DNA of 14,122 nucleotides from an uncultured Cytophagaceae bacterium (GTDB lineage Bacteria > Bacteroidota > Bacteroidia > Cytophagales > Microscillaceae). The stretch spans positions 1 through 14,122 of the forward strand of contig CALDJV010000935.1 of NCBI GenBank assembly GCA_937899305.1, in the 5' to 3' direction. Position numbers and translations under genes: made by a program. Within the stretch, counting starts at the first letter, position 1. Every line of letters begins with the position of its first letter. Under the pieces are notes generated by a model. It was given only the letters and a program-made list of their open reading frames with translations, made no database searches and was not told the DNA's origin. Positions 1 through 14,122 of this stretch are shown one piece after another.

Positions 1-164
1 CTCAGGATGACTAAAGAATCCTGACGATGGTAAAGAGGAAGAAAAAGTTACTGACGACCGATACAATGTTTTATTTTTGATTATAAAAACCAGGGGAAGA
101 AATTCACCAATTTTGAACACCCTACCTGACAAGTTTTGAAAACCTGCCAGGTATTTTTATCAGG

Positions 165-2714
165 TTAATCTTCCTCCTCCTCTTCTACGTCGTCGGCTTC
201 GGCTCCGTTGAGGCTAGACTCTAGCACATTGGCCAGTTTGGTGCCTTTGAGCATATTGGTAAATACCTGGGCCACACTTTTGCCTCCTAAAATGGCCAAT
301 GGTGACATTGATTTTGCCATTTTTTCGGCCAACGATTTATCGGCAAAGGCTTGCAAAGCAGCTATCAAATTAGGTGATACTGCCTCTGCTTTGTTCACTA
401 CCGCTTGTACTTCAGCCTGGAGTTGTTCCAGCTCTTGATTCAACTCTTTTTGAGCAATTTCTAACAGCAACTCTTCTTCTTTCTGCTTGCGGGCCAGTTC
501 TGCATCATTGATTTGAGTCAATGATTCTTGCTCAGCCAAATTGGCTTCCAGTTTACGTTGCTTAGACTGAATCTCCATGTCTAGTTTTACCAAAATAAGC
601 TCCAACTCTTTTTTGGCTTCCTTTTTCTCCAGATCTAACTGCCGTTGGGTAGTTTCGGATTTGGTAGTAGCAATCTGCTGACTGATTTCTTCGCTTTGTT
701 GGGTAAATTCTAATTTGCGTTTTTCGGCATCTATACGCAAAGTTTGTTTGACCACCTCTTGTTGGGCCGAAATCAACAGGTTTTCAATGCTTACATCGCT
801 CAGGCGAATGTCCAGCACTTCTATGTCATAAATACGCATGTTGTTTTCTTCAAACATACGCCCAGGACGTTTGTTGCTTTCTCCGGCTTCGCCCAAAATA
901 CTATTACGCAAAATGTCAATGCCATTGGCATAAAAATCCATAATGGTGTGTTTTTTCACCTTGTTACGGATAAACGAACGCATGTGGTCGGTCAAAAATT
1001 TGACATAATTCTCAACATTGAACCACTTGTCGGACGCTTCTTCAAAATTGACCCGATAAGAAATGGTAATGCTCACTTGGGTAAAATCAGAAGACTCGGC
1101 TTTGACAATGTCTGAAATTTTGTTGTGTAGTACTCGTAAATATACCGTAGTAATGGTATTATCGGAAGTTTTGGGCGTTCCAGTGGAGAGGGTAATGGGT
1201 TCCAGGCTTTCGTCGTATTCCAGCAAATAAGTTTGGGGCCCGGCTACTACTTTGCGTTGTCCGGTTTTGCTCACTACCAAAATGGCGTACCCGGTCCATA
1301 AGTTGATGGTCACCGCTCCTTCGTATTTGGTATCGAGGGTAATGGTGCGTGGAGGGGTAAAACTTTGCTCTCGGGTAAACTCATCTCCGGCCATTTCTTT
1401 GGAGACTTTCTCTTTCTTCTTGCGACGAGGTGCGGGTACCGGCATTTCGTCGGCCAGTTCTTCCATTTCTATGGCTGCCGCAGGTTCGGCCGATACCTCC
1501 AGATAACCTTCATTTGATTTACGGCGGTCCAGCTCTTGTTTGAGTTGACGATTGTATTCTAAGGCCTCCGAGTTACCTGGAAACCAAAGTTTTACTTGCT
1601 TGGGGTCTAATACCCGCTTGACAAATACTGCTTCTCGAGGATCGGGTAAAAACATGGCCGGACCTTGTTTGAGCGATACTTTTCCAGTTTTTCGGTTGAG
1701 GTAGTAGCGCCCTTCTCCTGCTGGAATGGCAATGGCATAATGTCTTTCTTTTTGGCCATATTTGATAATGGCATGTTCAGGACGAGGATAGTAAATCATT
1801 TGCTCGTTTCCGGTCACAAACAATTCTTCCCCTTCCTGGAAAGTAGTGCCATTTTCTTCATAAGGAGCTATGACCTTGATATACAAGCCACTCATTTCGT
1901 TGAGTTCAATTGCCCGGAACTTACGCGATCCATTGCGATATACAAACTCCTCAGTAGGTTTTGGGAAGACCACCGCAGGGCCTTGAATGTAACGTTTGTT
2001 GCCGTCTTCGTCTAGTAAAATACAATACTCGAGCCGCTCCAGAGTAACCGCTTCTCGCACGTAGTTTCCACTCACCCCTCGTACCACTTCTATGCCGGTG
2101 GGTGGGATATAAAACGATACTGCATCTCCCTTGATGATCAGCATTTTACCCATCGTCAAATCCGGCATTTCCTCCAGATTTATCACTTCTACCTCTGAAC
2201 CTTCTCCCTCCTTTTCTTCTCCGTCTTTGGCCTCTCCTGAACTTTTGGTTTTAATAACTGCCTTGTTCCAATTTTGTCGGGCTTCCTCTTCGTCGTATAC
2301 TCTTACCGCCAAATATTGATTTGAGCGTAAATGATGGCCTCTCAGCACTTTTACCATTTGTCCAGGCCATAGAGCAAAGTTAATAGGTCCCGGAATATTT
2401 ACTTTGCGCCCCACATTCAAAGCTCCCAGATTGCTTACGGTCCCATTTTTAGGCTGAGTACCATCCTGTGGAGGGTTCTTCATGACAATGTACCAACCCT
2501 CGGGTGCAGTGGTGAAAGTTTGCAAGGAAGTGTCAAGTGTACAACGTTCAAACTTTTTAGTTTGTGAATCAAATATGACGGGTTTATCAGTATTGGCCAA
2601 ACTGGTTTTATAAGGCCCTACATATACGTTGATGTTTCCTTTGGTTTGGTCAGAAATAAAAGCAAATTCATTGGGAGTAAGCACCAGATCGCGCTCTCGG
2701 TTGGAGTCTGACAT
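165..2714 (-). CDS. Major vault protein (MVP) homologue, full length (849 aa)
   Basis: The N-terminus (VLTPNEFAFISDQTKGNINVYVGPYKT) resembles the eukaryotic MVP N-terminus ([26 protein letters not shown]). About 500 aa follow as repeated beta-rich MVP-repeat-like modules. Next comes a shoulder-like segment (IYDIEVLDIRLSDVSIENLLISAQQEVVKQTLRIDAEKRK). After it is a long E/K/Q-rich coiled coil, equivalent to the cap-helix. The C-terminal block (PNLIAALQAFADKSLAEKMAKSMSPLAILGG) resembles the human MVP C-terminus and is followed by an acidic tail, DDVEEEEED. Start is ATG and stop is TAA. Confidence 0.85.
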   Translation of the reverse strand: MSDSNRERDLVLTPNEFAFISDQTKGNINVYVGPYKTSLANTDKPVIFDSQTKKFERCTLDTSLQTFTTAPEGWYIVMKNPPQDGTQPKNGTVSNLGALNVGRKVNIPGPINFALWPGQMVKVLRGHHLRSNQYLAVRVYDEEEARQNWNKAVIKTKSSGEAKDGEEKEGEGSEVEVINLEEMPDLTMGKMLIIKGDAVSFYIPPTGIEVVRGVSGNYVREAVTLERLEYCILLDEDGNKRYIQGPAVVFPKPTEEFVYRNGSRKFRAIELNEMSGLYIKVIAPYEENGTTFQEGEELFVTGNEQMIYYPRPEHAIIKYGQKERHYAIAIPAGEGRYYLNRKTGKVSLKQGPAMFLPDPREAVFVKRVLDPKQVKLWFPGNSEALEYNRQLKQELDRRKSNEGYLEVSAEPAAAIEMEELADEMPVPAPRRKKKEKVSKEMAGDEFTREQSFTPPRTITLDTKYEGAVTINLWTGYAILVVSKTGQRKVVAGPQTYLLEYDESLEPITLSTGTPKTSDNTITTVYLRVLHNKISDIVKAESSDFTQVSITISYRVNFEEASDKWFNVENYVKFLTDHMRSFIRNKVKKHTIMDFYANGIDILRNSILGEAGESNKRPGRMFEENNMRIYDIEVLDIRLSDVSIENLLISAQQEVVKQTLRIDAEKRKLEFTQQSEEISQQIATTKSETTQRQLDLEKKEAKKELELILVKLDMEIQSKQRKLEANLAEQESLTQINDAELARKQKEEELLLEIAQKELNQELEQLQAEVQAVVNKAEAVSPNLIAALQAFADKSLAEKMAKSMSPLAILGGKSVAQVFTNMLKGTKLANVLESSLNGAEADDVEEEEED

Positions 2715-2907
2715 ATCGTTTTCTATTTTGATTAAGTTGGGTATGTATTATGGCAATGAATTTACATAAAAATTTGAGTTTTGGGGTATTGGTTTCCTTT
2801 TTTTTGGCCTGAAGCAAAGACATAGTGAATGAAAATAATCGCTATTTCAGGCTTACGAATTCGTAGAGCACAATTCAATCAAAAGCGCTTGGTCAAGTTT
2901 CAAACCC

Positions 2908-2949
2908 CAATCAATAAAAAACCCAACAGATTTGGAGGGTCTGTTGGGT
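2908..2949 (-). terminator. Rho-independent terminator of the upstream 557-aa gene, insulating it from MVP
   Basis: Read on the minus strand, the element starts about 30 nt after the stop at 2981. It reads CCCAACAG-(11 nt loop)-CTGTTGGG, an 8-9 bp GC-rich stem, followed by TTTTTTATTGATT. Confidence 0.55.
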
Positions 2950-2980
2950 AGATTTTGTCATTTACTTTATCGAGCATACC

Positions 2981-4654
2981 CTAGGCAAGTCGTCCATCCG
3001 CTCTCATTTTATTGTAATGTTCGGGAGTGAGCTCAGCCACTGGAATGCGAAACACATTCATGGCTAACCCATCTGATATATGCTCCTGCTCATTGTCTAT
3101 TTCTTTTTTCCCTTTTTGCACATACTGGAGCTTGTTCAATCCTGGAAAAGTTTCTACCAATTGACCATTAGGGTCTTTTACCCACCAATGTTCATAGCCA
3201 ATTTTATCTGGTCGCTCATGCATACAAATTTTCCAAGTGTTTTTGGTTCCAAGTGGCAACACACGCAAGCCGTAGCTCTCAATTGTATTGATCATCACTT
3301 GTTGAGTAGCCTGCTTTACGGCCTTTTTTCTTGCTTTCCCAATTTTTTTGGCACTCCCCTGCCTACGGCTCACTTCTTTCAGATGAGTTACTGTAGCATC
3401 TAAACGTTCTCGAGCATTGTCAAACCTATTTTTTTCTGCTTCATTTAACTCATTTTGTACAAACATCGTGTATGCATCATCCCGTCCTAAACCAATCCCA
3501 GTTCCTCCTACATTGGATGGTACTTGGCTACTTACATAACCAAACATCGCGGTAGATTTTGGTACTCTCACATCTTCTGAAACTGCTCCAAGTAAGGCCC
3601 AATTCCAACAAGCAGGTCCATCAACAGACTTTTTCGTTTGAGAGGCCTCAAACTCCGCTTGAGCTTCTTCATCTAAGATAGTAGGCCCTAACTGGGAGCT
3701 TTCATTCTTTTTAAAATTCTTAAGTTTTACTGGTTTCTCATTCTCTTCTGCCATAATACCGCCTGCAAGCACATACAATTCACCTGGCTGAAATTCCCTT
3801 TCTACATCTTGAACCGTACCGTCGTAACTTAGTATCTTGTACACTTTTCTGGGCAAAGGTATCTTGGTATTGGTGCCCCAGATTTTTTTTAAAAATGATT
3901 TATCATTTACTGTCACCACTGTACCTTCTGGCAAAGTTCCTACCCTCTGTCCACTTTTGTTATAAACAGCCCTGTCACTCACATCACCTTTTTTGGAGGT
4001 ATGGTTTTTTATCTTGGTATTGATAATCCTCTGAACAGGAGAGGCCAAACTAAGTGTACTGGTGTTTGTTTCATTAGAAGAAACCTTTTCATCTGCTTTT
4101 CTTTGCAAAGGCTGCGCCGCCATTTGGTCGACTACTTGCTCTCGGGTGGTGTCTACCGATTGGCCGTTGACTACCTGGTCGCCTTTTGGAGTTCCATTTT
4201 TTGCATTGTCTATGGCGTGAGCCACTTCATGTTTGATGTTCGACTCAGTATCCTTGCCTGGAGCAAAGTCAATCTTGCTCCCCTGAATGGTGGCTTCGGC
4301 ATTGACTGTGTCTGGAAAAGGTGAATTATGATTGGCCTTCAAGCTCGACGTATCTACCCCATGTTGCTGCCCCATGGTGGTGGCTATTTCCTTGAATTTG
4401 GCCGAGCCTTGAGGTTGTTTGGTTTGTCCAGCCGAATTACGCTGCACTGGCTTTTGTTTGGCCTGAACGGGACGTTGCTTGGCTTGAATTGGTTTTTGTT
4501 TGGCCTGAACAGGGCGTTGCTTCGCTTGAATCGGCTTCTGCTTGGCTTGAATGGTACTTTTGCTTTGGGCTTTAGCTGATTTATTTGGTTCAACTGACTG
4601 TTTGCTTTGGGCTTGGGTGTTGTCGTTATGATTAGATGATGCTTGTTGATGCAT
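2981..4654 (-). CDS. Multidomain protein: N-terminal Q/K/P heptad repeats + DUF4157 (zincin-like HExxH) domain + C-terminal putative papain-fold Cys/His domain; polymorphic-toxin/effector-like
   Basis: Residues about 92-150 (MGQQHGVDTSSLKANHNS...NAEATIQGSKIDFAPGKDTESNIKHEVAHAIDN) fit the DUF4157 pattern. That pattern is M..FG.DFS.VR.H...A.A.T.G..I.F..G.......HE.AHxxQ, with the HExxH motif. Residues 36-71 are five copies of QAKQ[KR]P[IV]. In the C-terminal 330 aa, Cys349 sits in GPACWNWALLG and His489 in IGYEHWWVKD. Their 140-aa spacing is reminiscent of the papain-like Cys...His-aromatic arrangement. No signal peptide is evident. Confidence 0.7.
   Translation of the reverse strand: MHQQASSNHNDNTQAQSKQSVEPNKSAKAQSKSTIQAKQKPIQAKQRPVQAKQKPIQAKQRPVQAKQKPVQRNSAGQTKQPQGSAKFKEIATTMGQQHGVDTSSLKANHNSPFPDTVNAEATIQGSKIDFAPGKDTESNIKHEVAHAIDNAKNGTPKGDQVVNGQSVDTTREQVVDQMAAQPLQRKADEKVSSNETNTSTLSLASPVQRIINTKIKNHTSKKGDVSDRAVYNKSGQRVGTLPEGTVVTVNDKSFLKKIWGTNTKIPLPRKVYKILSYDGTVQDVEREFQPGELYVLAGGIMAEENEKPVKLKNFKKNESSQLGPTILDEEAQAEFEASQTKKSVDGPACWNWALLGAVSEDVRVPKSTAMFGYVSSQVPSNVGGTGIGLGRDDAYTMFVQNELNEAEKNRFDNARERLDATVTHLKEVSRRQGSAKKIGKARKKAVKQATQQVMINTIESYGLRVLPLGTKNTWKICMHERPDKIGYEHWWVKDPNGQLVETFPGLNKLQYVQKGKKEIDNEQEHISDGLAMNVFRIPVAELTPEHYNKMRADGRLA
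4442..4549. repeat. In-frame imperfect 21-bp tandem repeat x5 (encodes QAKQ[KR]P[IV]) inside the 557-aa CDS
   Basis: The nucleotide period is visible directly: ttgcttggcttgaattggtttttgtttggcctgaac is repeated with small substitutions. The protein-level heptad repeat confirms it. Confidence 0.8.
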
Positions 4655-5255
4655 ATTAGTTTTTAAAATTAGATAATACCTTGAAAATCTACCAACCTGA
4701 ATAAAGCAGAATGGGCCACTTTAGCTAAAGCCACCTATGTTTGGTGTCTTCAGCTTACCTAGGTATTCTTCGAAGCTGTATCGTGATTATTTTCACAATA
4801 CAGTTTTAAAATCTGCTTTTATTTGGTTATAAAGTCGTTTTTAAAAACTTTTTTCTTTCAGGCATCCGCCTGATGACTGCAATCAATAACCCTTACAAAG
4901 CAGGCTAACATTTGGTTGCTTTGATAATTAAATTTATTAACAGCCTCTTAACACAGTTGTATTATTCAAATAATCATTTTCACCTTATCTCAAGCATTGA
5001 AGTAGGTTTATTAATTCGTAATAAGGTCGAAGGCAACTTGATATTGACTAAAAAGAAAGCCTTGTGCTCAAGTCAAAAAAACCTTAACTCAAACAATTTT
5101 TCATAAAATCTTACCATAATTCGTTATATTACCATTGAAGTATAGATTGATCATAAAAATTAGCATCTTTGAAAGCATACGATGCTTGGAAGCGGTGATT
5201 TTATTTGAAAACCAACTTTCAAACACTCGTACCAAACATTCAAATAATTATTTCT
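4655..5255. promoter_or_regulatory. 600-bp AT-rich divergent intergenic region; presumed promoters for the 557-aa gene (minus strand) and the subtilase (plus strand)
   Basis: The stretch has no convincing ORF and sits between divergently transcribed genes. It contains small palindromes (gtttttaaaaac, caggcatccgcctg). I could not assign precise -33/-7 elements by eye. Confidence 0.3.
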
Positions 5256-6917
5256 ATGAAATTGAAAAGTATTTTTATAATAGGTTTATTGTTCATTCAA
5301 GTAGGGATGGCCAACGCCAAAACTCCTACCCCTTACAAATTCCCCTACCCCGTTTTCCATTTTTCTAATATTTATTGGGTAGTAGCCAGTGATAGCACCG
5401 ACAAACCTCCCAAAAACTGGTTCAATCTCGATGCCAAGCAGGATAATATTCGTGGAGTGAGTACCGAAAAAACGTATCAGACCTTGTTGAAAGGCAAAAA
5501 ATCTACTACAGTAGTAGTAGCCGTGATCGACTCGGGCATAGATACCAAACACCCTGATTTGAAAAAGCAGATTTGGGTAAACCCCAAAGAAAAACCGGGC
5601 AACGGCAAAGACGATGACAAAAATGGGTATGTGGATGATATAAATGGTTGGGATTTTATCGGCGGAAAAGACGGCAAAGATGTGGATATAGATACCTATG
5701 AGCTTACCCGGGAATTGCTTCGTCTGGAGAAAAAATTTGCCGATGCCGACCCTGAAAAGATACGCAAGAAAGACAAGAAGGAATATGAGAGTTATCTTAA
5801 AATAAAGAAAACACACGCCAGTAAATACGGTGAGGCGCGTCAGACCTACGCAGTGATCACTCAAATCAAAGCAGCTTATCAAGTGGTTCAAAAAGCACTT
5901 GGCAAAAAAGATGTCAAAAAAGAAGACCTTGATAACCTCAACAGTGAGGACGCGGAGGTAGTGCAAGCAGCTCAGATTCTAAAACGAGCCATTGGATTTG
6001 GCCTTCCCTTGGGTCAGATAGAGGAAGCCCACAAACATTACGAAACCATGTTTAAATATTGGTTGAACAAGGATTTTAACCCCCGCAATATTGTAGGAGA
6101 TAACTACAAGAAGTTGAATGAAAAAGGGTATGGTAACAATGAGGTACAGGGCCCTGACGCAGATCACGGAACTCACGTAGCAGGGATTATCGGAGCCGAC
6201 AGAACCAATGATGTGGGTATCAAAGGAGTAGCTGACAATGTCAAAATTATGGTATTGAGAGCAGTGCCCAATGGAGACGAAAGAGACAAGGACATTGCCA
6301 ACGCCATTCGTTATGCAGTAGACAATGGGGCACGCATCATCAACATGAGTTTTGGTAAGTCTTATTCTCCTAACAAAGAATTTGTTGACAAGGCGGTAAA
6401 GTACGCCCAAAAGAAAGGAGTATTGTTGATACACGCTGCAGGTAACGACGGCGCTAACTTGGACGAAGCAGCTAATTTTCCTAATAAAAAATTCAAAAAC
6501 TCTAAAAAATCGGCCAAAAACTGGATTGAAGTAGGTGCTTCTTCCTGGGGAGACGAGAAGAATTTTGTGGGTAGTTTTTCAAACTATGGTAAAACTGCAG
6601 TAGATGTATTTGCCCCTGGGGTAGCCATCAACTCTACCATTCCTGACAATAAATACACTGAGCATGACGGAACCAGTATGGCCGCTCCGGTAGTATCTGG
6701 AGTAGCTGCTTTACTGATGTCTTACTTCCCTGAATTGAGCGCTGAAGATGTAAAGGAAATCATTCTGAAGTCATCAATTAAGTACACTGATAAGGAAATC
6801 AACAAACCGGGTAGAGGTAAAAACACCATTAAATTTGGTGAATTGTCAGCAACTGGGGGTATTGTCAATGCATACGAAGCCGTAAAAATGGCTCAAAACT
6901 GGAAGGATAATAAGTAG
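5256..6917 (+). CDS. Secreted subtilisin-like serine peptidase (S8 family)
   Basis: The catalytic triad motifs are present: Asp in VVAVIDSGID, His in DADHGTHVAG, Ser in GTSMAAPVVSG, plus the oxyanion Asn in HAAGNDG. A signal peptide MKLKSIFIIGLLFIQVGMANA begins at an internal ATG (about 5256). The ORF-track start at 5205 is probably upstream of the true start. A charged insert of about 180 aa lies between the catalytic Asp and His. Confidence 0.9.
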   Translation: MKLKSIFIIGLLFIQVGMANAKTPTPYKFPYPVFHFSNIYWVVASDSTDKPPKNWFNLDAKQDNIRGVSTEKTYQTLLKGKKSTTVVVAVIDSGIDTKHPDLKKQIWVNPKEKPGNGKDDDKNGYVDDINGWDFIGGKDGKDVDIDTYELTRELLRLEKKFADADPEKIRKKDKKEYESYLKIKKTHASKYGEARQTYAVITQIKAAYQVVQKALGKKDVKKEDLDNLNSEDAEVVQAAQILKRAIGFGLPLGQIEEAHKHYETMFKYWLNKDFNPRNIVGDNYKKLNEKGYGNNEVQGPDADHGTHVAGIIGADRTNDVGIKGVADNVKIMVLRAVPNGDERDKDIANAIRYAVDNGARIINMSFGKSYSPNKEFVDKAVKYAQKKGVLLIHAAGNDGANLDEAANFPNKKFKNSKKSAKNWIEVGASSWGDEKNFVGSFSNYGKTAVDVFAPGVAINSTIPDNKYTEHDGTSMAAPVVSGVAALLMSYFPELSAEDVKEIILKSSIKYTDKEINKPGRGKNTIKFGELSATGGIVNAYEAVKMAQNWKDNK

Positions 6918-6949
6918 TTTTTTTAGTTTTAAAGTCAATAGTTTTCTTT

Positions 6950-7021
6950 AGTTGGTAGTCCGTAGTTTTATTTAGTTGGTAGTCCGTAGTTTTATTTAGT
7001 TGGTAGTCCGTAGTTTTATTT
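6950..7021. repeat. Perfect 3 x 24-bp tandem repeat (AGTTGGTAGTCCGTAGTTTTATTT)
   Basis: Three identical head-to-tail copies start about 33 nt after the subtilase stop. Degenerate AGTCC(A)-containing copies follow at about 7022-7050 (agtccacggtcgacagtccatagtccacag). Confidence 0.9.
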
Positions 7022-7168
7022 AGTCCACGGTCGACAGTCCATAGTCCACAGTAGCGCGATGCGGAACAATTAGCTTTTGGTCCTTGGTTGACTAATTGAA
7101 TGAAAAATGATACGCCGCTTTGCGCAACCCGAAGTCCTGAGCGAAGCCGAAGGAACTAGCAATGCAGC

Positions 7169-7291
7169 AATGAGCCGAAGGCGGAACAATGTAACAATAG
7201 CAATAAGTCATCGCTTTGCGAAACAATTAAACAATGAGCCGAAGGCGGAGCAATGTAACAATAGCAATAAATCATCGCTTCGCGAAACAAT
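7169..7291. repeat. Two near-identical ~59-bp direct repeats (period 64 bp) with degenerate partial copies upstream
   Basis: The unit aatgagccgaaggcgg[a/g]acaatgtaacaatagcaataa[g/a]tcatcgctt[t/c]gcgaaacaat occurs twice. Related fragments (gcgatgcggaacaat, gagcgaagccgaagg, ccgctttgcgcaaccc) lie at about 7055-7168. Each unit carries an imperfect internal inverted repeat, gccgaaggcg / cgcttcgcg. Confidence 0.85.
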
Positions 7292-7367
7292 AGTCCAGAG
7301 CTGATGAAATCGAAAAGTTATTTTTTCAGCTTTAATAAACGTAAAAAATTGACTATATCAATAATTG

Positions 7368-7400
7368 GTCTCGCAGGTATTTTACTTGCGAGGCTTTTTT
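7368..7400 (+). terminator. Intrinsic-terminator-like hairpin + U-tract, 17 nt upstream of the start codon of the next gene
   Basis: The sequence is GGTCTCGCAGG-tatttta-CTTGCGAGGC, a roughly 10-bp stem, followed by TTTTTTATAT. This pattern exists only on the plus strand. It could end the subtilase/repeat transcript or act as a leader attenuator for the three-gene operon. Confidence 0.45.
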
Positions 7401-7416
7401 ATATCTGAGCATTCCC

Positions 7417-8040
7417 ATGAAAATATATTTTACCCTTGATGAACTTCCTGAACAATATCAAAAACAATTCAAGGCCGGATTTGACCTCAATCATCTCCAG
7501 CAATTTTACCCTGCCACCAATCCTTATGGCACTACCCTATTTACCCTGATTGCCTTTGGCTTGCCCGCCATTTTGGTCATCGTTTTAGTAATCATGGCGC
7601 TTTTTCAGCCTATGGCCAACCCTCCTCAAACCACCCAAGATTGGCTCATTTTTGTTAGTATTGCCGCTTTTCTATTACTCATTCTGGGTGGCCTCGCTTG
7701 GTGGATTGTTCGGGTATTCAAAAACTTTCGAGTTGTTTCTCAAATTAAAAAGATACGCAAGGAAAAAGGGCTTAGTCACTATGGATTGCTCTTAGATGAA
7801 CACTTGGTGTACCGGCCCATTGCTACCCAAAAACCAATACTGATGTTACCTAAAGACTTGGTCCGTCGGGTAAAGCAAGTGTCTCAACGGGTAGAAGGCA
7901 GCAACCGACAATACTTACAACTGATTTACTTTGATGAAGACCAACAGCAGGAGTTTTATGTCGAGATGAGCCGCTATGAACTAGATAAGCAGTACACTCA
8001 AGGCAGGACCCTGAGTACCATTATAGAAAAATGGAAATAA
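7417..8040 (+). CDS. Hypothetical 2-TM inner-membrane protein (paralogue of the gene at 8683-9363)
   Basis: It has a 207-aa ORF with an ATG start. The N-terminal cytoplasmic motif is QKQFKAGF...LQQFYP. Two hydrophobic helices follow (FTLIAFGLPAILVIVLVIMALF and LIFVSIAAFLLLILGGLAWWIV). The C-terminal domain of about 100 aa has a conserved YRP motif. It is clearly paralogous to the third gene of the cluster. Confidence 0.7.
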   Translation: MKIYFTLDELPEQYQKQFKAGFDLNHLQQFYPATNPYGTTLFTLIAFGLPAILVIVLVIMALFQPMANPPQTTQDWLIFVSIAAFLLLILGGLAWWIVRVFKNFRVVSQIKKIRKEKGLSHYGLLLDEHLVYRPIATQKPILMLPKDLVRRVKQVSQRVEGSNRQYLQLIYFDEDQQQEFYVEMSRYELDKQYTQGRTLSTIIEKWK

Positions 8041-8044
8041 AAAT

Positions 8045-8617
8045 ATGAAGTACACATCGAAAAATAAGTATCAAATAGGGTGGTTGATTGTATGGGGTAT
8101 TTGCCAATGGCTTACCGGGTGTTACCCCATCTACCTCGAAAGGTCTAAAGCCAATGGGGAAATGCGAACGGTGAAAACCTGGCATTTTACCAGAAACCTA
8201 GTCAAGCACAAATCACTGACCTCAGATGGAAAACTTGTCAAACGATTTTATATCTCGCCTAGTGCCCGATGCTTGTCTCGCCAAGACATCAAACTCATCA
8301 AAAAACAATTGAGGACCAAAAAAGTCAGGTTTACAAACTATACCATCTACTCACAAGATTGCAAAGCTGTATTTTCACTCTCGGTAGACGATTACATTGC
8401 TCCTTTTTACCGCATTTCAATTCCCATGATCAAGACAAATGGGAAAATATTTATCAATCATTGCCTTCAGGATAACCCTCCCCTTGCGGAATTGCTTGTC
8501 ATTGAAAAACTACTCCGTAAGGAGTTTTCAGCAGATGTAGTAAAAACCATTCTGGCTCGTTATAAAAGAGGTACGCAACGGTTTGTCAGGCGTCATTATC
8601 ATCGAACGAGGCATTGA
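8045..8617 (+). CDS. Hypothetical protein, putative lipoprotein (lipobox L-T-G-C at Cys26), very basic C-terminal tail
   Basis: It has a 190-aa ORF that starts 4 nt after the previous stop. The N-terminus MKYTSKNKYQIGWLIVWGICQWLTGC has a positively charged n-region, a hydrophobic h-region and an LTGC lipobox. The C-terminus is RYKRGTQRFVRRHYHRTRH. No recognisable domain. Confidence 0.55.
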   Translation: MKYTSKNKYQIGWLIVWGICQWLTGCYPIYLERSKANGEMRTVKTWHFTRNLVKHKSLTSDGKLVKRFYISPSARCLSRQDIKLIKKQLRTKKVRFTNYTIYSQDCKAVFSLSVDDYIAPFYRISIPMIKTNGKIFINHCLQDNPPLAELLVIEKLLRKEFSADVVKTILARYKRGTQRFVRRHYHRTRH

Positions 8618-8682
8618 AGCAGGTCATCAACAAGGCGCTAAAACCAACTCAACCAGGTTCTTTAATCAAACGATTTAGAAAA

Positions 8683-9363
8683 ATGCAGGTATATCATTCG
8701 TGGAAAGACTTTCCAATTTCCTGTCAAAAACAATTGAAAGAAGGTTTTAATACTCAAAATCTCAAGGATTTTTATCCAACATCTACCAACTTCTGGATGT
8801 ATTTGCTTGGGACGGTTTTATTAGGCATTCCAGGATTCATTGCCAGTATTTGGGGAGTCATTGCTATAGTAGATTTGCTATTTTTTCAGGATAATTTTTC
8901 TGATTCTTCTAGTATAAGCGACACCATTGTATTGGTGGTGGCCGTTTTGATTGTCCTCATTCTATTGATCGCTTTTTTTATTTGGGGAATCAACCTATTC
9001 ACCAATTTTATGAGAGCCATCCAAATAAAGCAAGGCCACAAAAAACAACGGGTATATTTTGGTTTGTGGTTAGCCACCGATGCACTCATTTACCGTCCAC
9101 GATTGGCAAATAAAAAACCGATCTATATTTCTAAAAAACAAGTAACTAAAGCCGAATGGCATTCCGAAATACTCCCTTCAGGTTCGGGTGGAGGCAAACA
9201 TCAAGTATACTTTAGTTTGATATATTATCACGATTCAGTTCAAAATGTCGAATACCATATTAGGATTGACCAAGAAGCACTGGATGCCCAATACTTGCAA
9301 CAAAGGGAGGTGTATCAAATTGTAAATGATTGGCTGACCAAAAAGGGGAAAAGGAGGCATTGA
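8683..9363 (+). CDS. Hypothetical 2-TM inner-membrane protein (paralogue of 7417-8040)
   Basis: The ORF track opens at a TTG at 8614 that overlaps the preceding stop. The first ATG, at 8683, gives an N-terminus MQVYHSWKDFPISCQKQLKEGFNTQNLKDFYP. That aligns residue for residue with MKIYFTLDELPEQYQKQFKAGFDLNHLQQFYP of the first gene. Two TM helices follow, then a conserved block GL.L....L[VI]YRP....KPI. The true start is uncertain between 8614 and 8683. Confidence 0.65.
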   Translation: MQVYHSWKDFPISCQKQLKEGFNTQNLKDFYPTSTNFWMYLLGTVLLGIPGFIASIWGVIAIVDLLFFQDNFSDSSSISDTIVLVVAVLIVLILLIAFFIWGINLFTNFMRAIQIKQGHKKQRVYFGLWLATDALIYRPRLANKKPIYISKKQVTKAEWHSEILPSGSGGGKHQVYFSLIYYHDSVQNVEYHIRIDQEALDAQYLQQREVYQIVNDWLTKKGKRRH

Positions 9364-9750
9364 CTTTCGAGACCTGATTACAGTTATTTTTTACCGATCA
9401 TGTTTAAGAATTAGCATCAATCATACACTATTACCAAGGCATATTTGTGCTTGTCTTGCCTCGCTATGAAACCATCTGTCTGTCTCATACGTTACACAAA
9501 AGAGAAAAAATCCTAACAAAGGAATAAGAATCAATCAACTTATCAATTATCAGAGTTAAGATGCTCTGAAATCCACTTCTTCACCTTACTTAGGTGTCTT
9601 CACTAACCGGTGATTATACCATTAAATTCACTTTGGAAGGTTGTAGTTTTTAGGTGCTCACTCTTCAGGTAGCAGTTGCGTAATTAGGGGCAATTTTGCT
9701 CACCCTGCTACCCTACAAACTTTTCATGAAGCAAAACCACAGCACATTTT

Positions 9751-10503
9751 CTAGCTTTTTTTAGTATTGACCAACTCCAAAGTACGGCAAGTTTTTTCGG
9801 CAGCGGCTTGCTCAGCTTTCTTTTTGCTAAATCCAGTACCGCTGGCAACTGGTTCTTCGTCTATGATAACCTGTGCTACAAATTGTCGTTGATGTTTGGA
9901 TCCTTCCTCTTTCACAATCTCAAACCGTAGCTCCCGATTGTTTTTCTGAGCCCACTCGATTACAATACTTTTGTAGTTTTGGTTGTTCTCGATGATTTCT
10001 CCCAAGTCTAAGTGGCCCATCACAATTTTCCTTACTACAAATTTACGGCAGTAATGGAAGCCTTTGTCCAGATAGACCGCTCCAACCAATGCCTCTAGAG
10101 CATCACCTCCCATAGATTTGTAAGTAAAATTGTTTCTACGGCTTCCCTCAAACTTGATCAAGTCCTGGATACCCATTTTGCGAGACAATTGGTTCAAAGA
10201 TTCCCGATTAACAATTCGCGCTCGAATTTCAGTCAAAAAACCTTCTTCTTTGAATGGATATTTTTTGAATAGGTAATCGGCTACTATTGCGCCTAGAATA
10301 GCATCACCCAGATACTCTAAGCGTTCATTAGACTCTTTGAATCCATCTTGCAGCGATTTGGAAGCCGAAGTGTGGCTCAGGGCAAGTTGATAAAGAGAAA
10401 GGTTAAACGGCTTGTGTCCAATAATTCTCTTGATAGAATTGGCAAGCCGTTTTTCTTCTTCGGTATGTTTTTTAAGTAGTTTAGATATAAATCTAAAAAT
10501 CAC
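9751..10503 (-). CDS. rnc: Ribonuclease III
   Basis: The RNase III signature ERLEYLGDAILGAIVADYLF is present. A C-terminal dsRBD-like region carries the AEQAAAEKTCRTL motif. It has a GTG start overlapping the fabF stop by 1 nt, and 250 aa. Confidence 0.9.
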   Translation of the reverse strand: MIFRFISKLLKKHTEEEKRLANSIKRIIGHKPFNLSLYQLALSHTSASKSLQDGFKESNERLEYLGDAILGAIVADYLFKKYPFKEEGFLTEIRARIVNRESLNQLSRKMGIQDLIKFEGSRRNNFTYKSMGGDALEALVGAVYLDKGFHYCRKFVVRKIVMGHLDLGEIIENNQNYKSIVIEWAQKNNRELRFEIVKEEGSKHQRQFVAQVIIDEEPVASGTGFSKKKAEQAAAEKTCRTLELVNTKKS

Positions 10504-11756
10504 TACATTTCTAATTTTTTAAAAACTAAGGTAAAATTATGTCCGCCAAAACCAAAGGTATTGCTCATGGCATAATTTATTTCTCTTTCCTGAACTTTGT
10601 TGAAGGTAAAATTCAACTTTTTGTCAAATTGCTCATCATCCGTAAAATGGTTGATGGTAGGAGGAACAACTTGATGTTGAATTGCCAAAATAGTCGCTAC
10701 GGCTTCTATTGCGCCAGCAGCTCCTAACAAATGCCCAGTCATTGACTTGGTAGAGCTAATATTAAGATTATAAGCGTGTTCACCAAATACTTTTTGAATG
10801 GCTAAAGCTTCGCTGTAGTCTCCCAAAGGAGTAGAAGTACCGTGTACATTGATATAATCAATGGCTTCGGCAGTTATCCCAGCATCATTCAATGCATCTT
10901 GCATCACCTTGATTGCTCCTAGCCCTTCAGGATGAGGAGCAGTAAGATGGTGAGCATCAGAAGACATACCGCCACCTACCAATTCAGCATAAATTTTAGC
11001 ACCACGTGCCTTGGCGTGTTCGTATTCTTCTAGTATGATGGCTCCACCACCTTCTCCAAGTACAAAGCCATCTCGTTCCTTGTCGAAAGGGCGAGAAGCA
11101 GTAGTTGGAGAATCGTTTCTTTCAGAAAGTGCTTTCAAAGCATTGAAGCCTCCAATACCTGTTTCGGTTACTGCTGCTTCTGAGCCTCCCGAAACGGCCA
11201 TGTCAATTCTACCCAAGCGGATGTAATTGAAAGCATCTACCATGGCATTGGTAGCCGATGCACAAGCCGAAACCGTTACGTAGTTTGGCCCTCGAAAGCC
11301 ATATTTTATAGAGATGTGACCCGAACTTAGGTCAGCAATCATTTTAGGTATAAAAAACGGACTAAACTTAGGAGTTCCATTGCCTTGGGCAAATCCCATT
11401 ACTTCGTCCTGGAAAGACTTCAAACCACCAATACCTGCCCCCCAGATAACTCCTACTCGATCTTTGTTGATGCTATCTAGGTTTACTTGTGCATCTTGGA
11501 TGGCTTCTTCGCAAGCCACCAATGCATAGTGGGTAAAAATATCCATCCGGCGTGCATCACGACGATGAATATGGTCTTCAACGTTGAAGTTTTTTACCTC
11601 ACAGGCAAATTTAGTTTTGAATTTTTCTGCGTCAAACTTAGTAATTGGAGCAGCCCCACTTACCCCATTCTTTAAACCCTCCCAAAACTCAGGTACAGTA
11701 TTACCGATGGGAGTGAGTGAGCCTAATCCAGTTACTACAACTCGTCTTAAATTCAT
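10503..11756 (-). CDS. fabF: 3-oxoacyl-[acyl-carrier-protein] synthase II (KAS II)
   Basis: The protein is 417 aa. It has the active-site Cys in VSACASATNA, the HGTSTPLGD His motif and the NISSTKSMTGHLLGAAG motif. The overall beta-ketoacyl-ACP synthase family layout is typical. Confidence 0.95.
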   Translation of the reverse strand: MNLRRVVVTGLGSLTPIGNTVPEFWEGLKNGVSGAAPITKFDAEKFKTKFACEVKNFNVEDHIHRRDARRMDIFTHYALVACEEAIQDAQVNLDSINKDRVGVIWGAGIGGLKSFQDEVMGFAQGNGTPKFSPFFIPKMIADLSSGHISIKYGFRGPNYVTVSACASATNAMVDAFNYIRLGRIDMAVSGGSEAAVTETGIGGFNALKALSERNDSPTTASRPFDKERDGFVLGEGGGAIILEEYEHAKARGAKIYAELVGGGMSSDAHHLTAPHPEGLGAIKVMQDALNDAGITAEAIDYINVHGTSTPLGDYSEALAIQKVFGEHAYNLNISSTKSMTGHLLGAAGAIEAVATILAIQHQVVPPTINHFTDDEQFDKKLNFTFNKVQEREINYAMSNTFGFGGHNFTLVFKKLEM

Positions 11757-11772
11757 AAACAGAGTTTATTTT

Positions 11773-12015
11773 TTACTTTACGTTCTCTTCTAGGTAGGTA
11801 ATGGCCTGTCCCACGGTTCCAATATTTTCTGCGTGATCGTCAGGAATAGAAATTTCAAACTCTTTTTCAAACTCCATGATCAGTTCGACAGTATCCAAAG
11901 AATCAGCCCCTAAATCATTAGTGAAGCTTGCTTCTGGAGTAACCTCTGACTCTTCAACACCAAGTTTATCAATAATGATATTATTAACTTTTTTTGCAAT
12001 TTCTGACATTTTCAA
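11773..12015 (-). CDS. acpP: Acyl carrier protein
   Basis: It is about 78 aa with the phosphopantetheine-attachment motif [17 protein letters not shown]. The true start may be the ATG two codons inside the ORF (MSEIAKK...). Confidence 0.9.
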
Positions 12016-12449
12016 TAATAGTTTAGTTAAAAAAACTCTGCAAAGAAATGCATTAAAAACAATATTATCAAACTATTTTAACGATTCGTGATCTGATTCG
12101 CTGGAAATTATATTATTGTTAAATATTGCTTTCTTTGGATAGTTATTTGGCAAAAACACCTTGAATTATCTTTTTTGTGAATCCAAACATCCATATTATT
12201 TTTGGACATCACAAAAAAACGCAAAATATAATTTTGAGCCTTAGTGCTGGTTTGTCAATCACTGGATCGCAAAGACAAAGCGTTAAAAAATGATCGTAAA
12301 TGGCGCTAATTATCTTCACATTACCAATATATTGTAGCTTTTTACAAAATAGTAGTACAAATTGATCAAAATTTGATGCATATTGCGGCCATTGTACAAA
12401 AAATTCTCCCCATAACTAAATTGAGACAAAAACACATAAGATAGATAAG
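12016..12449. promoter_or_regulatory. Divergent AT-rich intergenic region between acpP (minus strand) and pyk (plus strand); presumed promoters
   Basis: The 430-bp stretch has no ORF. It contains the near-palindrome TTGATCAAAATTTGATGCA about 55 nt upstream of pyk. No specific promoter elements were called. Confidence 0.3.
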
Positions 12450-13877
12450 ATGAAACCATTTTTCAACAAAACAAAAGTAATCGCAACTGTGGGTCCCGCC
12501 ATTAATACCAAAGAAAAACTATTGGAAATGGTTCAGGAAGGTACCGATGTATTTAGATTGAATTTCTCACACGGAAGCCACGAAGAGCACAAAAAGGTGA
12601 TTCAATATATTCGTGAGCTAAATAAAGAGCATAACTTAAATATATGTATTCTACAGGATTTGCAAGGTCCTAAAATTCGCCTGGGAGAAGTTGCTTCTGA
12701 TCAGGAGTTTTTGAAAGCCGGAAAAAAAGTAACAATTACGACCCAACCTATTAAGTCTACGGCTAAAAAAATTAGCACCACTTACAAAGCTTTTGTAAAC
12801 GATGTAAAACCGGACGATCAGATTTTGATTGATGATGGTAAGATCGAACTAAAAGTATTGGAGGTAAGAAACAAAGAGGTCGTTGCTGAGGTGATATACG
12901 GTGGACAATTGAAGTCTAAAAAAGGAATTAACCTTCCTAGTACCAATATATCTTCTCCTTCGTTGACCGAAAAAGATACCAAAGATTTGATGTTTGGCCT
13001 GGAAGAAGAGGTAGACTGGATTGCTTTGTCGTTTGTACGCTCGCCCATCGATGTATTGCTATTGAAGCACATCATCAAGCAACAGGGCAAAGAAATAAAG
13101 GTCATTGCCAAGGTAGAAAAACCAGAAGCCATTGATCAAATAGATGCCATTATTGAAGCATCTGATGCCATTATGGTAGCCCGTGGAGACTTGGGAGTAG
13201 AGGTGAAAATTGAGGAAGTACCTTTGATTCAAAAATTGATCGCTCAAAAATGTCGTCAAGTAGGCAAACCCGTCATCATTGCTACTCAAATGCTGGAAAG
13301 TATGATTGACAACCCTCGCCCTACTCGCGCCGAAACCAATGACATTGCCAATGCGGTAATGGATGGTGCCGATACGTTGATGCTCAGCGGAGAAACTGCG
13401 GTGGGTAAGTATCCACTGGAAACGGTGCGTACGATGAATGAGACCATCCGGATTATGGAGCAAAAAAGTGAGAGTATTTACCATAAAAAAGAGGTACTGC
13501 ACCGTAAGTCTCCCACTTATTATAATGACAGCATCATTGCGGCAGCCTGTGTATTGGCCCAAGATACCCATGCTAAAGGCATTGTGGGTATGACTCAATC
13601 GGGGTACACCGCTTTTCAGGTGGCTCGTTTCCGCCCCAAGGCACATATTTTTATATTTACGGCCAATCGTAAACTGCTCAACCGCTTGAGTCTGGTTTGG
13701 GGAGTAAGGGCTTTTTATTATGACAAGTTTACCTCTACTGATGATACTTTTGACGAGGTATTGGGACTACTTCAGCAAGAAGGGCACCTCAACAAAGGGG
13801 ATATTTGCATTAACTTGGCCAGTATGCCCATTGCCAAGCGACAACGTACCAATACCATTAAGATGTCGCAGATCTAA
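12450..13877 (+). CDS. pyk: Pyruvate kinase
   Basis: The protein is 475 aa. Its N-terminus is KVIATVGPAINTKEKLLEMVQEGTDVFRLNFSHGSHEEH. It has the MVARGDLGVEV active-site loop. A C-terminal effector-binding domain is present. Confidence 0.95.
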   Translation: MKPFFNKTKVIATVGPAINTKEKLLEMVQEGTDVFRLNFSHGSHEEHKKVIQYIRELNKEHNLNICILQDLQGPKIRLGEVASDQEFLKAGKKVTITTQPIKSTAKKISTTYKAFVNDVKPDDQILIDDGKIELKVLEVRNKEVVAEVIYGGQLKSKKGINLPSTNISSPSLTEKDTKDLMFGLEEEVDWIALSFVRSPIDVLLLKHIIKQQGKEIKVIAKVEKPEAIDQIDAIIEASDAIMVARGDLGVEVKIEEVPLIQKLIAQKCRQVGKPVIIATQMLESMIDNPRPTRAETNDIANAVMDGADTLMLSGETAVGKYPLETVRTMNETIRIMEQKSESIYHKKEVLHRKSPTYYNDSIIAAACVLAQDTHAKGIVGMTQSGYTAFQVARFRPKAHIFIFTANRKLLNRLSLVWGVRAFYYDKFTSTDDTFDEVLGLLQQEGHLNKGDICINLASMPIAKRQRTNTIKMSQI

Positions 13878-13900
13878 TTGTAATTACTAAGCTTTTATTG

Positions 13901-13950
13901 ATCCCTTTTATAATATATGGATATTGTAAAAGGGATTTTTGTTGTTTTTT
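13901..13950 (+). terminator. Rho-independent terminator of pyk
   Basis: The stem ATCCCTTTTA-(16 nt)-TAAAAGGGAT has 10 bp. It is followed by TTTTGTTGTTTTTTTT and lies about 25 nt after the pyk stop. Confidence 0.6.
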
Positions 13951-14122
13951 TTCAAAATGTAGTACAATCCTCTCCTCAACAAAACAATCACCAATGTCTG
14001 TCAAGCCTGATGCATCTGTGCATATTTAGCATACCCACAAATTCTCCTGAAAATATTCGGCTAGCCGAGTATTTTTTTTATTTTTGTTAATGGAGTTTTT
14101 GGTACTCAATCTCTATTTTTTT

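Follow-up and report, generated by a model that had tools for sequence, protein, structure and literature searches.

In a 14,122-nucleotide stretch of DNA from an uncultured Cytophagaceae bacterium affiliated with Microscillaceae (GenBank assembly GCA_937899305.1, contig CALDJV010000935.1, positions 1 to 14,122; hereafter, the window), we analysed a gene, designated P0001, whose product is probably a cargo, or effector, of an extracellular contractile injection system (eCIS). This phage-tail-like particle would be encoded in another part of the genome, which would make the effector gene an orphan. The N-terminal module of the protein, with a divergent and predicted zincin-like DUF4157 domain, is shared by more than 170 proteins with differing C-termini, and its C-terminal Cys/His domain has a homologue, P0134, in an eCIS operon. 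Both results agree with the polymorphic-toxin or eCIS-cargo architecture proposed in an earlier reading of the bare DNA (the sequence-only reading).

Gene product and its domain architecture

The gene is an open reading frame (ORF) of 557 amino acids (aa) with an ATG start and a TAG stop; the start is considered correct because the same MHQ... N-terminus is present in the paralogues P0002-P0006. The protein has no signal peptide and only two cysteines, Cys349 and Cys477. Its features, with those flanking the gene, are as follows.

2981..4654, minus strand: whole gene of an orphan DUF4157-type polymorphic effector (P0001), from the ORF list and translation; 173 homologues, all but one confined to aa 1-210
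4400..4654, minus strand: predicted disordered N-terminal region, aa 1-85, candidate loading sequence, from its composition and by analogy to the cargos Cgo1/Cgo2 (see below)
4439..4549, minus strand: five tandem heptad repeats (KQ[KR]P[IV]QA) ending in PVQR, aa 36-72; Q71 and R72 conserved
4085..4399, minus strand: divergent DUF4157/eCIS_core zincin-like domain, aa 86-190, including PLQRK (aa 182-186) at its end, from PF13699 and the family profile
4217..4231, minus strand: HEVAH, aa 142-146, putative zinc-binding/catalytic motif, from conservation
4139..4141, minus strand: Glu172, candidate third ligand, invariant in 120/120 members
4028..4039, minus strand: PVQR junction motif, aa 206-209, just ahead of the variable cassette; Q208 conserved
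2807..4095, minus strand: swapped cassette comprising linker, beta subdomain, Cys/His domain, stop codon and terminator, from blastn against the related loci L012 and L020
3740..4024, minus strand: beta-rich subdomain, aa 211-305, possibly SH3b-like
2984..3622, minus strand: Cys/His catalytic-type domain, aa 345-557, outside Pfam, predicted papain-like; motifs ACWNWAL, [WF][ED]HWW and V-E-T-F-P
3608..3610, minus strand: Cys349 codon, predicted nucleophile, invariant in 22/22 sequences and opening a helix of the model
3188..3190, minus strand: His489 codon, predicted general base, invariant and opening model strand 158-162
3152..3154, minus strand: Glu501 codon, candidate third triad residue on the next strand; E, D or Q in most members
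2915..2949, minus strand: intrinsic terminator with a 10-bp GC-containing stem, 9-nt loop and T6, read from the sequence; the palindrome was also found in a scan
165..2714, minus strand: neighbouring MVP homologue, not judged part of the system (Pfam MVP_shoulder, Vault_3, Band_7)

The HExxH motif, the N-terminal heptad repeat and the spacing of 140 residues between Cys349 (in GPACWNW) and His489 (in YEHWWV), all listed in the sequence-only reading, were present in the sequence. The single C-terminal domain of 330 aa that it had assumed was not: this part of the protein consists of the beta-rich subdomain (aa ~211-305), a low-confidence linker (aa 306-344) and the Cys/His domain. The terminator stem on the minus strand, 2949..2921, reads ACCCAACAGA / TCTGTTGGGT, is followed by TTTTTT and lies 31 nt past the TAG codon of the effector gene. 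It should be added that three antisense ORFs of 83-107 aa within the gene (3080..3403, 4001..4324 and 4328..4579, plus strand) are most likely spurious.

The N-terminal module defines a polymorphic family

Among 5.8 billion proteins searched, 173 proved to be homologues of the N-terminal module (N-module, aa 1-210); they come from Microscillaceae and Aquimarina. In all of these relatives except one, P0002, the homology stops at aa ~186-210, and the C-termini that follow comprise calpain C2, ACTMAP-like, protein kinase, VirD5-like, RNase, ADP-ribosyltransferase, Endonuclea_NS_2, M91, C39 and C80 domains. At least 12-13 paralogues per genome, some of them in tandem arrays, were counted in marine bacterium AO1-C and in the Microscillaceae metagenome-assembled genome (MAG) UBA11690. 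DUF4157 paralogues with different C-terminal domains, which the sequence-only reading had suggested looking for, are thus numerous in related genomes. Judged by these comparisons, the protein is a member of a polymorphic family in which a conserved N-terminal module is combined with exchangeable C-terminal domains.

Polymorphic toxin systems with zincin-like 'pre-toxin' domains were reportedly described by Zhang, Aravind and colleagues in 2012. The family resembles such systems in its conserved N-terminal trafficking/processing module with interchangeable C-terminal toxin cassettes, and also in the many paralogues per genome, the tandem arrays and the cassette replacement at a fixed locus. In contrast to them, the window effector has no adjacent immunity gene and matches neither Tox-PL nor any other catalogued toxin model of Pfam: the 266-nt gap immediately downstream, towards MVP, holds the terminator only and no ORF.

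Several observations were made at other loci of the family. In AO1-C (MLAY01000005.1, ~54-107 kb; L004/L005), at least eight co-oriented N-module paralogues stand in tandem, interspersed with Methyltransf_28-like genes and a gene for a 1266-aa unknown protein; no injection-system gene was found within 10 kb of this array. A DUF5916 gene (~740 aa) directly precedes N-module genes in AO1-C (L006, 2347-4593) and in Microscilla marina (L009, 7643-9859), and this adjacency may be either orthologous synteny or a sign of a functional partner. Moreover, the RNase paralogue P0097 of M. marina is followed, after 10 bp, by an ORF of 151 aa (L009, 12575-13030) with no Pfam match, a candidate immunity protein.

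Leader and divergent DUF4157 domain

The first 85 residues are dominated by Gln, Lys, Ala, Ser and Pro (Q20 K13 A11 S9 P7) and are devoid of aromatic, Leu and Cys residues; the heptads give rise to a tandem repeat in the DNA (4448..4551) with a period of 21/42 nt. By analogy with studied eCIS cargos, this region is a candidate loading sequence for an injection particle.

The assignment of the following domain to DUF4157 (PF13699, now named "eCIS_core"), made in the sequence-only reading, fails for the single sequence and holds for the family. Pfam gave no PF13699 match for the full-length protein, and the excised aa 86-185 reached only a sub-threshold 15.6 bits (E=0.019, model positions 6-77 of 79) against a gathering score of 22 bits; taken singly, 3 of 78 paralogues attained E<=1e-3. 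A hidden Markov model (HMM) built from the aa 80-190 region of about 120 family members, however, matched bona fide PF13699 domains of distant proteins at 2.8e-18 to ~1e-8, the best being P0127 (2.8e-18), P0124 (1.2e-16) and P0132 (7e-16); the proteins matched in this way score up to 6.9e-26 against PF13699 itself. The same HMM matched a 150-aa PF13699 protein of locus L007 at 2.4e-16. Furthermore, 118 of 120 family members carry HExxH, His142 and Glu143 are invariant and His146 is at least 90% conserved among 78 members, and Glu143 and Glu172 are invariant in the 120 aligned members. On account of these profile matches and this conservation, and despite the failure of the single sequence in Pfam, we assign aa 86-190 to a divergent subfamily of DUF4157 in which the gluzincin-like signature is intact and metal binding and activity are putative.

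The module follows the same plan across the paralogues: a hydrophilic leader in which P[IV]QAK repeats are followed by a final PVQR, the DUF4157 core, PLQRK, a short spacer and another P[IV]QR just ahead of the variable part. Gln71, Arg72 and Gln208 are each at least 90% conserved, Gln208 despite the unrelated C-termini behind it. The leader of P0121, a protein that shares the C-terminal region and not the N-module (see below), ends in TIQR at the alignment position of PVQR aa 206-209, and we propose this PVQR as a candidate processing site.

The C-terminal Cys/His domain

Only two close relatives of aa 205-557 were found in a word-indexed database: P0002, 47% identical and carrying the same N-module, and P0121, 36% identical, in which a short leader replaces the N-module. 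When 1.84 billion representatives were searched exhaustively by HMMER with the three-sequence profile, the set grew to 36 proteins from Bacteroidota, Actinomycetota and Betaproteobacteria, which have in common a region that starts shortly ahead of Cys349 and ends near aa 510. In an alignment of 22 sequences, 20-28% identical to the query, Cys349, Ala353, Gly462, His489, Trp490 and Trp491 are invariant, and position 501, within V-E-T-F-P, is in most cases occupied by E, D or Q. Cys477 and His479 (ICMH) were considered as an alternative catalytic pair and rejected, as they are not conserved (VGQH, IVLQ, ISMI and others).

This family appears to be undescribed. Pfam searches of the 22 core domains at E<=10 revealed no recurrent family, Pfam and NCBIfam gave nothing significant on the full protein (Transglut_prok being among the models that the C-terminal domain does not match), and sequence searches of the PDB with the core profile and the beta subdomain yielded chance-level matches only. 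No defence-system match for the effector or MVP was returned by PADLOC, and no paper by a full-text literature search for the motif CWNWAL. Among 10 word-index matches, the named members of the family (from Chitiniphilus, Actinoplanes and Nocardioides) are all annotated as 'hypothetical protein', and cluster look-ups of the relatives gave no informative names.

The AlphaFold2 model of aa 332-557, based on the 22-sequence alignment, had a pLDDT of 82.3 and a pTM of 0.83. In it, Cys349 opens a helix followed by a long helical hairpin, His489 opens a beta strand, and Glu501 is located on the following strand. A conserved Cys at a helix N-terminus and a conserved His on a strand, the arrangement of papain-like enzymes, are therefore found in alignment and model together. 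The papain-like character suggested in the sequence-only reading gains support from the invariant Cys349/His489 pair and this layout; the predicted fold is consistent with the assignment but weak evidence for it, and Foldseek found nothing in the PDB at E<0.5. An earlier AlphaFold run on a 3-sequence alignment (pLDDT 55.7) was used solely for the beta subdomain (aa 211-305), which is possibly SH3b-like.

AvrPphB and YopT (peptidase C58), which are papain-like type III effectors, are 9% identical to the Cys/His domain of the window effector, showing no relationship at the sequence level; the domain of the window effector has a helical hairpin of ~90 residues inserted between Cys and His, its third residue is probably a Glu at +12 as opposed to the Asp at +15 in AvrPphB/YopT, and the delivery machine of the C58 effectors differs from the one proposed here.

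Links to contractile injection systems

Strong PF13699 domains are fused to the Cys/His domain in 10 of its 36 members (best 6.9e-26). The gene for P0134, a homologue of the C-terminal domain, closes a complete eCIS operon at its 3' end, directly after genes for Pvc16_N (Afp16-type) and an AAA ATPase (Afp15-type) and with sheath and tube genes alongside; this is the canonical position for an eCIS toxin. P0124 lies within an array of DUF4157 genes with a PAAR-RHS toxin nearby, and P0121, with its short F.DNR...IQR leader, in an array whose genes share the start MYAQVEKPKEN... and which adjoins a PF13699 gene. In P0149 (L027, 2692-3564), encoded 3.5-5.5 kb from PAAR and VgrG-like genes, the Cys/His domain is fused to a eukaryote-type FYVE zinc finger. 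Such FYVE fusions were found three times in the family (P0149, P0142 and P0155) and hint at eukaryotic targets. Taken together, these genomic contexts connect the Cys/His domain with contractile injection systems independently of the N-module.

A further observation concerns locus L007, where four consecutive genes (5311-9636) begin with MYAQVEKPKEN..., a leader of the F.DNR...IQR type, and have unrelated C-termini, the stand-alone 150-aa PF13699 gene mentioned above being located upstream of this array. The shared N-terminus appears to be an alternative leader type of this effector class.

The N-module points in the same direction. DUF4157 is a statistical marker of eCIS toxins, being present in 36% of known ones vs 0.06% of other proteins (PMC11297309, PMC8213781), and the toxins tagged with it are a recognised class, about half of which have no recognisable toxin domain (PMC11297309). 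Taxa that carry the module are also eCIS-positive. In the supplements of Geller 2021, Microscilla marina ATCC 23134, a strain with several N-module members, is listed with two complete eCIS operons, and an eCIS is recorded for 14 of 16 Aquimarina genomes.

The closest experimentally studied architecture is that of the AlgoCIS cargos Cgo1 and Cgo2 of Algoriphagus machipongonensis, whose loading was demonstrated experimentally (PMC8894135; bioRxiv 10.64898/2026.05.27.728243). Like the window effector, in which the disorder is predicted, these proteins from Bacteroidota, Cytophagales, combine a disordered N-terminus, an HExxH-containing DUF4157 in the centre and an effector domain that varies at the C-terminus, and neither they nor the window effector have a Sec signal. 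The differences are in the location of the genes, which are inside the eCIS cluster for Cgo1/Cgo2 and orphan in a housekeeping neighbourhood for the window effector; in the leader, whose KQ[KR]P[IV]QA heptads are family-specific and only a candidate loading signal; in the DUF4157, divergent and below the Pfam threshold in the window; and in the C-terminal domain, which is a different, uncatalogued Cys/His domain. A second comparable protein is EAT14 of Chitinophaga rupis (DUF4157-LysM-transglutaminase), toxic to both E. coli and yeast (PMC11297309). It shares with the window effector the N-terminal DUF4157 and a Cys-His(-Asp) domain of the papain/transglutaminase superfamily, predicted in the case of the window protein. 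The intervening binding domain is LysM in EAT14 and the beta subdomain in the window effector, and, unlike in EAT14, the C-terminal domain matches neither Transglut_prok nor any other Pfam model.

Several points weigh against an eCIS cargo. As stated in the sequence-only reading, the window itself is free of injection-system genes: none for sheath, tube, baseplate, Afp15 or Afp16 was found among the ORFs of at least 80 aa in its 14 kb. The N-module paralogues of M. marina and AO1-C are likewise far from eCIS operons; therefore, the link to eCIS is one by family and taxon and not by locus. Members from AO1-C, M. marina and Chitiniphilus occupy orphan positions, with no injection genes in the contexts examined. 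Moreover, none of the loading signals tested by experiment is similar in sequence to the leader of the N-module family. In Cgo1/Cgo2, loading needs the N-terminal domain and not DUF4157 (bioRxiv 10.64898/2026.05.27.728243), and HExxH is dispensable for Cgo1 toxicity (PMC8894135; bioRxiv 10.64898/2026.05.27.728243), so that any role of this domain in processing is speculative. Finally, DUF4157 also occurs in some effectors of type VI secretion systems (T6SS; PMC11297309).

The last point bears on the possibility that the protein is an effector of another contractile system, a Bacteroidota-type T6SSiii or a cytoplasmic contractile injection system, and is delivered by a VgrG/PAAR spike and not through the tube of a released particle. 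We regard this as unlikely. The neighbourhoods of P0149 and P0124 could be cited in its favour; PAAR and VgrG-like spikes are, however, also present in eCIS loci, and therefore L027 does not discriminate between T6SS and eCIS. The architecture closest to that of the window protein is known from cargo of the eCIS tube lumen, the Afp15/Afp16-type genes preceding P0134 are typical of eCIS, and the M. marina genome has eCIS operons.

A different question is what the cassette does upon delivery. It might be an antibacterial wall hydrolase, in which the SH3b-like part would serve as a binder and an NlpC/P60/CHAP-type Cys-His amidase or endopeptidase would attack the peptidoglycan of rivals. This, too, seems improbable to us; it concerns the chemistry of the C-terminal part only and is compatible with eCIS delivery.

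The MVP neighbour and the cassette swap

The MVP homologue (MVP_shoulder 1.8e-30, Vault_3 6.2e-9) is co-oriented with the effector gene across the 266-nt gap, and, as noted from the sequence alone, this gap (2715..2980) contains nothing but the effector's terminator. Bacterial MVP homologues have already been reported in Microscilla (PMC3762200; bioRxiv 10.1101/872010). Other ORFs of the window encode an S8 subtilase, three membrane or unknown proteins, RNase III, FabF, ACP and pyruvate kinase.

A protein scan of 185,579 species genomes for MVP yielded 15 loci. In two of them, from UBA11690 (MVP 92% identical) and AO1-C (93%), an N-module gene is located upstream of MVP (L012 and L020). These are the two closest genomes, with RNase III 97% identical, and the order pyruvate kinase, FabF, RNase III, membrane proteins, S8 subtilase (divergent), N-module gene, MVP is preserved in both. 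The 13 other loci contained no DUF4157-like ORF, six of them having about 5-10 kb of upstream sequence. In blastn comparisons with L012 and L020, homology to the window extends through the N-module, stops at 4096 (aa 187, just past PLQRK) and resumes at 2806/2781; because of this break, we conclude that a C-terminal cassette of 1.3 kb was replaced together with its terminator. The gene at the effector position in both loci has a different C-terminal domain, while P0002 of UBA11690, the closest relative of the window cassette, is on another contig, adjoining TPR and SnoaL genes.

The whole neighbourhood being syntenic in very close relatives, the adjacency to MVP is inherited gene order; it reflects recent shared order at a recombination-prone effector locus and is not evidence of function. 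That the effector is a cargo or partner of a bacterial vault-like (MVP) particle, as the sequence-only reading had speculated, is thus very improbable: the two genes are adjacent and co-oriented and L012 and L020 show the arrangement 'S8 subtilase <> N-module gene > MVP' as well, but the adjacency is confined to these three close genomes with another cassette in the other two, the 13 remaining MVP loci are without such a gene, the sole full-length relative P0002 is elsewhere, no MVP gene was seen at the other paralogue loci examined (L004-L006, L009-L011), and the effector gene has a strong terminator of its own. No MVP-interacting INT-type Pfam domain was found in the effector.

With regard to the neighbours themselves, relatives of the MVP homologue were found in Microscillaceae (84-93% identity) and in MAGs of Bernardetiaceae, Raineyaceae and Chitinophagales (63-70%), and unexpectedly in MAGs labelled Parcubacteria/Pacebacteria (46-48%) or Clostridium sp. 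(41%); these latter matches could be due to contamination or lateral transfer. The S8 subtilase (5205..6917, plus strand; Pfam 1.1e-56), with a weak resemblance to mycosins of the type VII secretion system, is divergent from the effector gene across an AT-rich spacer of 550 bp. A functional link between the two was rejected, as they are syntenic in the same three genomes only and the subtilase is absent from the other paralogue loci examined. The ORFs 7417..8040 and 8614..9363 (both plus strand) are distant paralogues of each other, with tblastn cross-matches of 25-30% in the syntenic loci and only weak Yip1/DUF975/FxsA-like membrane-protein matches, and ORF 8045..8617 between them had no match at all.

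Proposed mode of action and significance

As an eCIS cargo, the protein would be made in the cytoplasm without a secretion signal and loaded into the particle by means of its disordered, Q/K/P/A-rich N-terminus (aa 1-85). The released particle would bind a target cell, contract and eject the cargo. In the target, a beta-rich and possibly SH3b-like targeting subdomain would precede a papain-like enzyme with Cys349 as the nucleophile, His489 as the base and probably Glu501 as the third residue, and this enzyme might cleave or modify a target protein as a protease, a deubiquitinase-like enzyme or a deamidase. DUF4157 (HEVAH and Glu172) would be accessory and may process the flanking P-[IVL]-Q-R motifs (aa 69-72, 182-186 and 206-209), freeing the toxin domain.

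A bolder extension of this proposal, which we put forward tentatively and consider rather doubtful as a whole, is that ACWNWAL...EHWW marks a new catalytic family of contractile-injection effectors against eukaryotic cells, with the FYVE fusions suggesting endosomal or phagosomal membranes as the site of action (e.g., a deubiquitinase, a deamidase or a lipid-anchor-cleaving protease directed against protist grazers), and that the Microscillaceae N-module is a self-processing delivery tag that would let dozens of scattered orphan genes feed one or two eCIS machines.

A functional connection of a bacterial vault protein with a toxin, tempting as it may be, is unsupported and is thereby removed. 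The gene provides a concrete handle on one uncatalogued toxin domain, with an invariant Cys/His pair, a confident model and C349, H489 and E501 as mutational targets, and the exchange of the cassette at the syntenic locus illustrates the way in which effectors of this kind diversify. Moreover, the Microscillaceae family is a natural library of over 100 cargo proteins built on one leader, which may be useful for understanding and engineering the loading of cargo into programmable injection particles.

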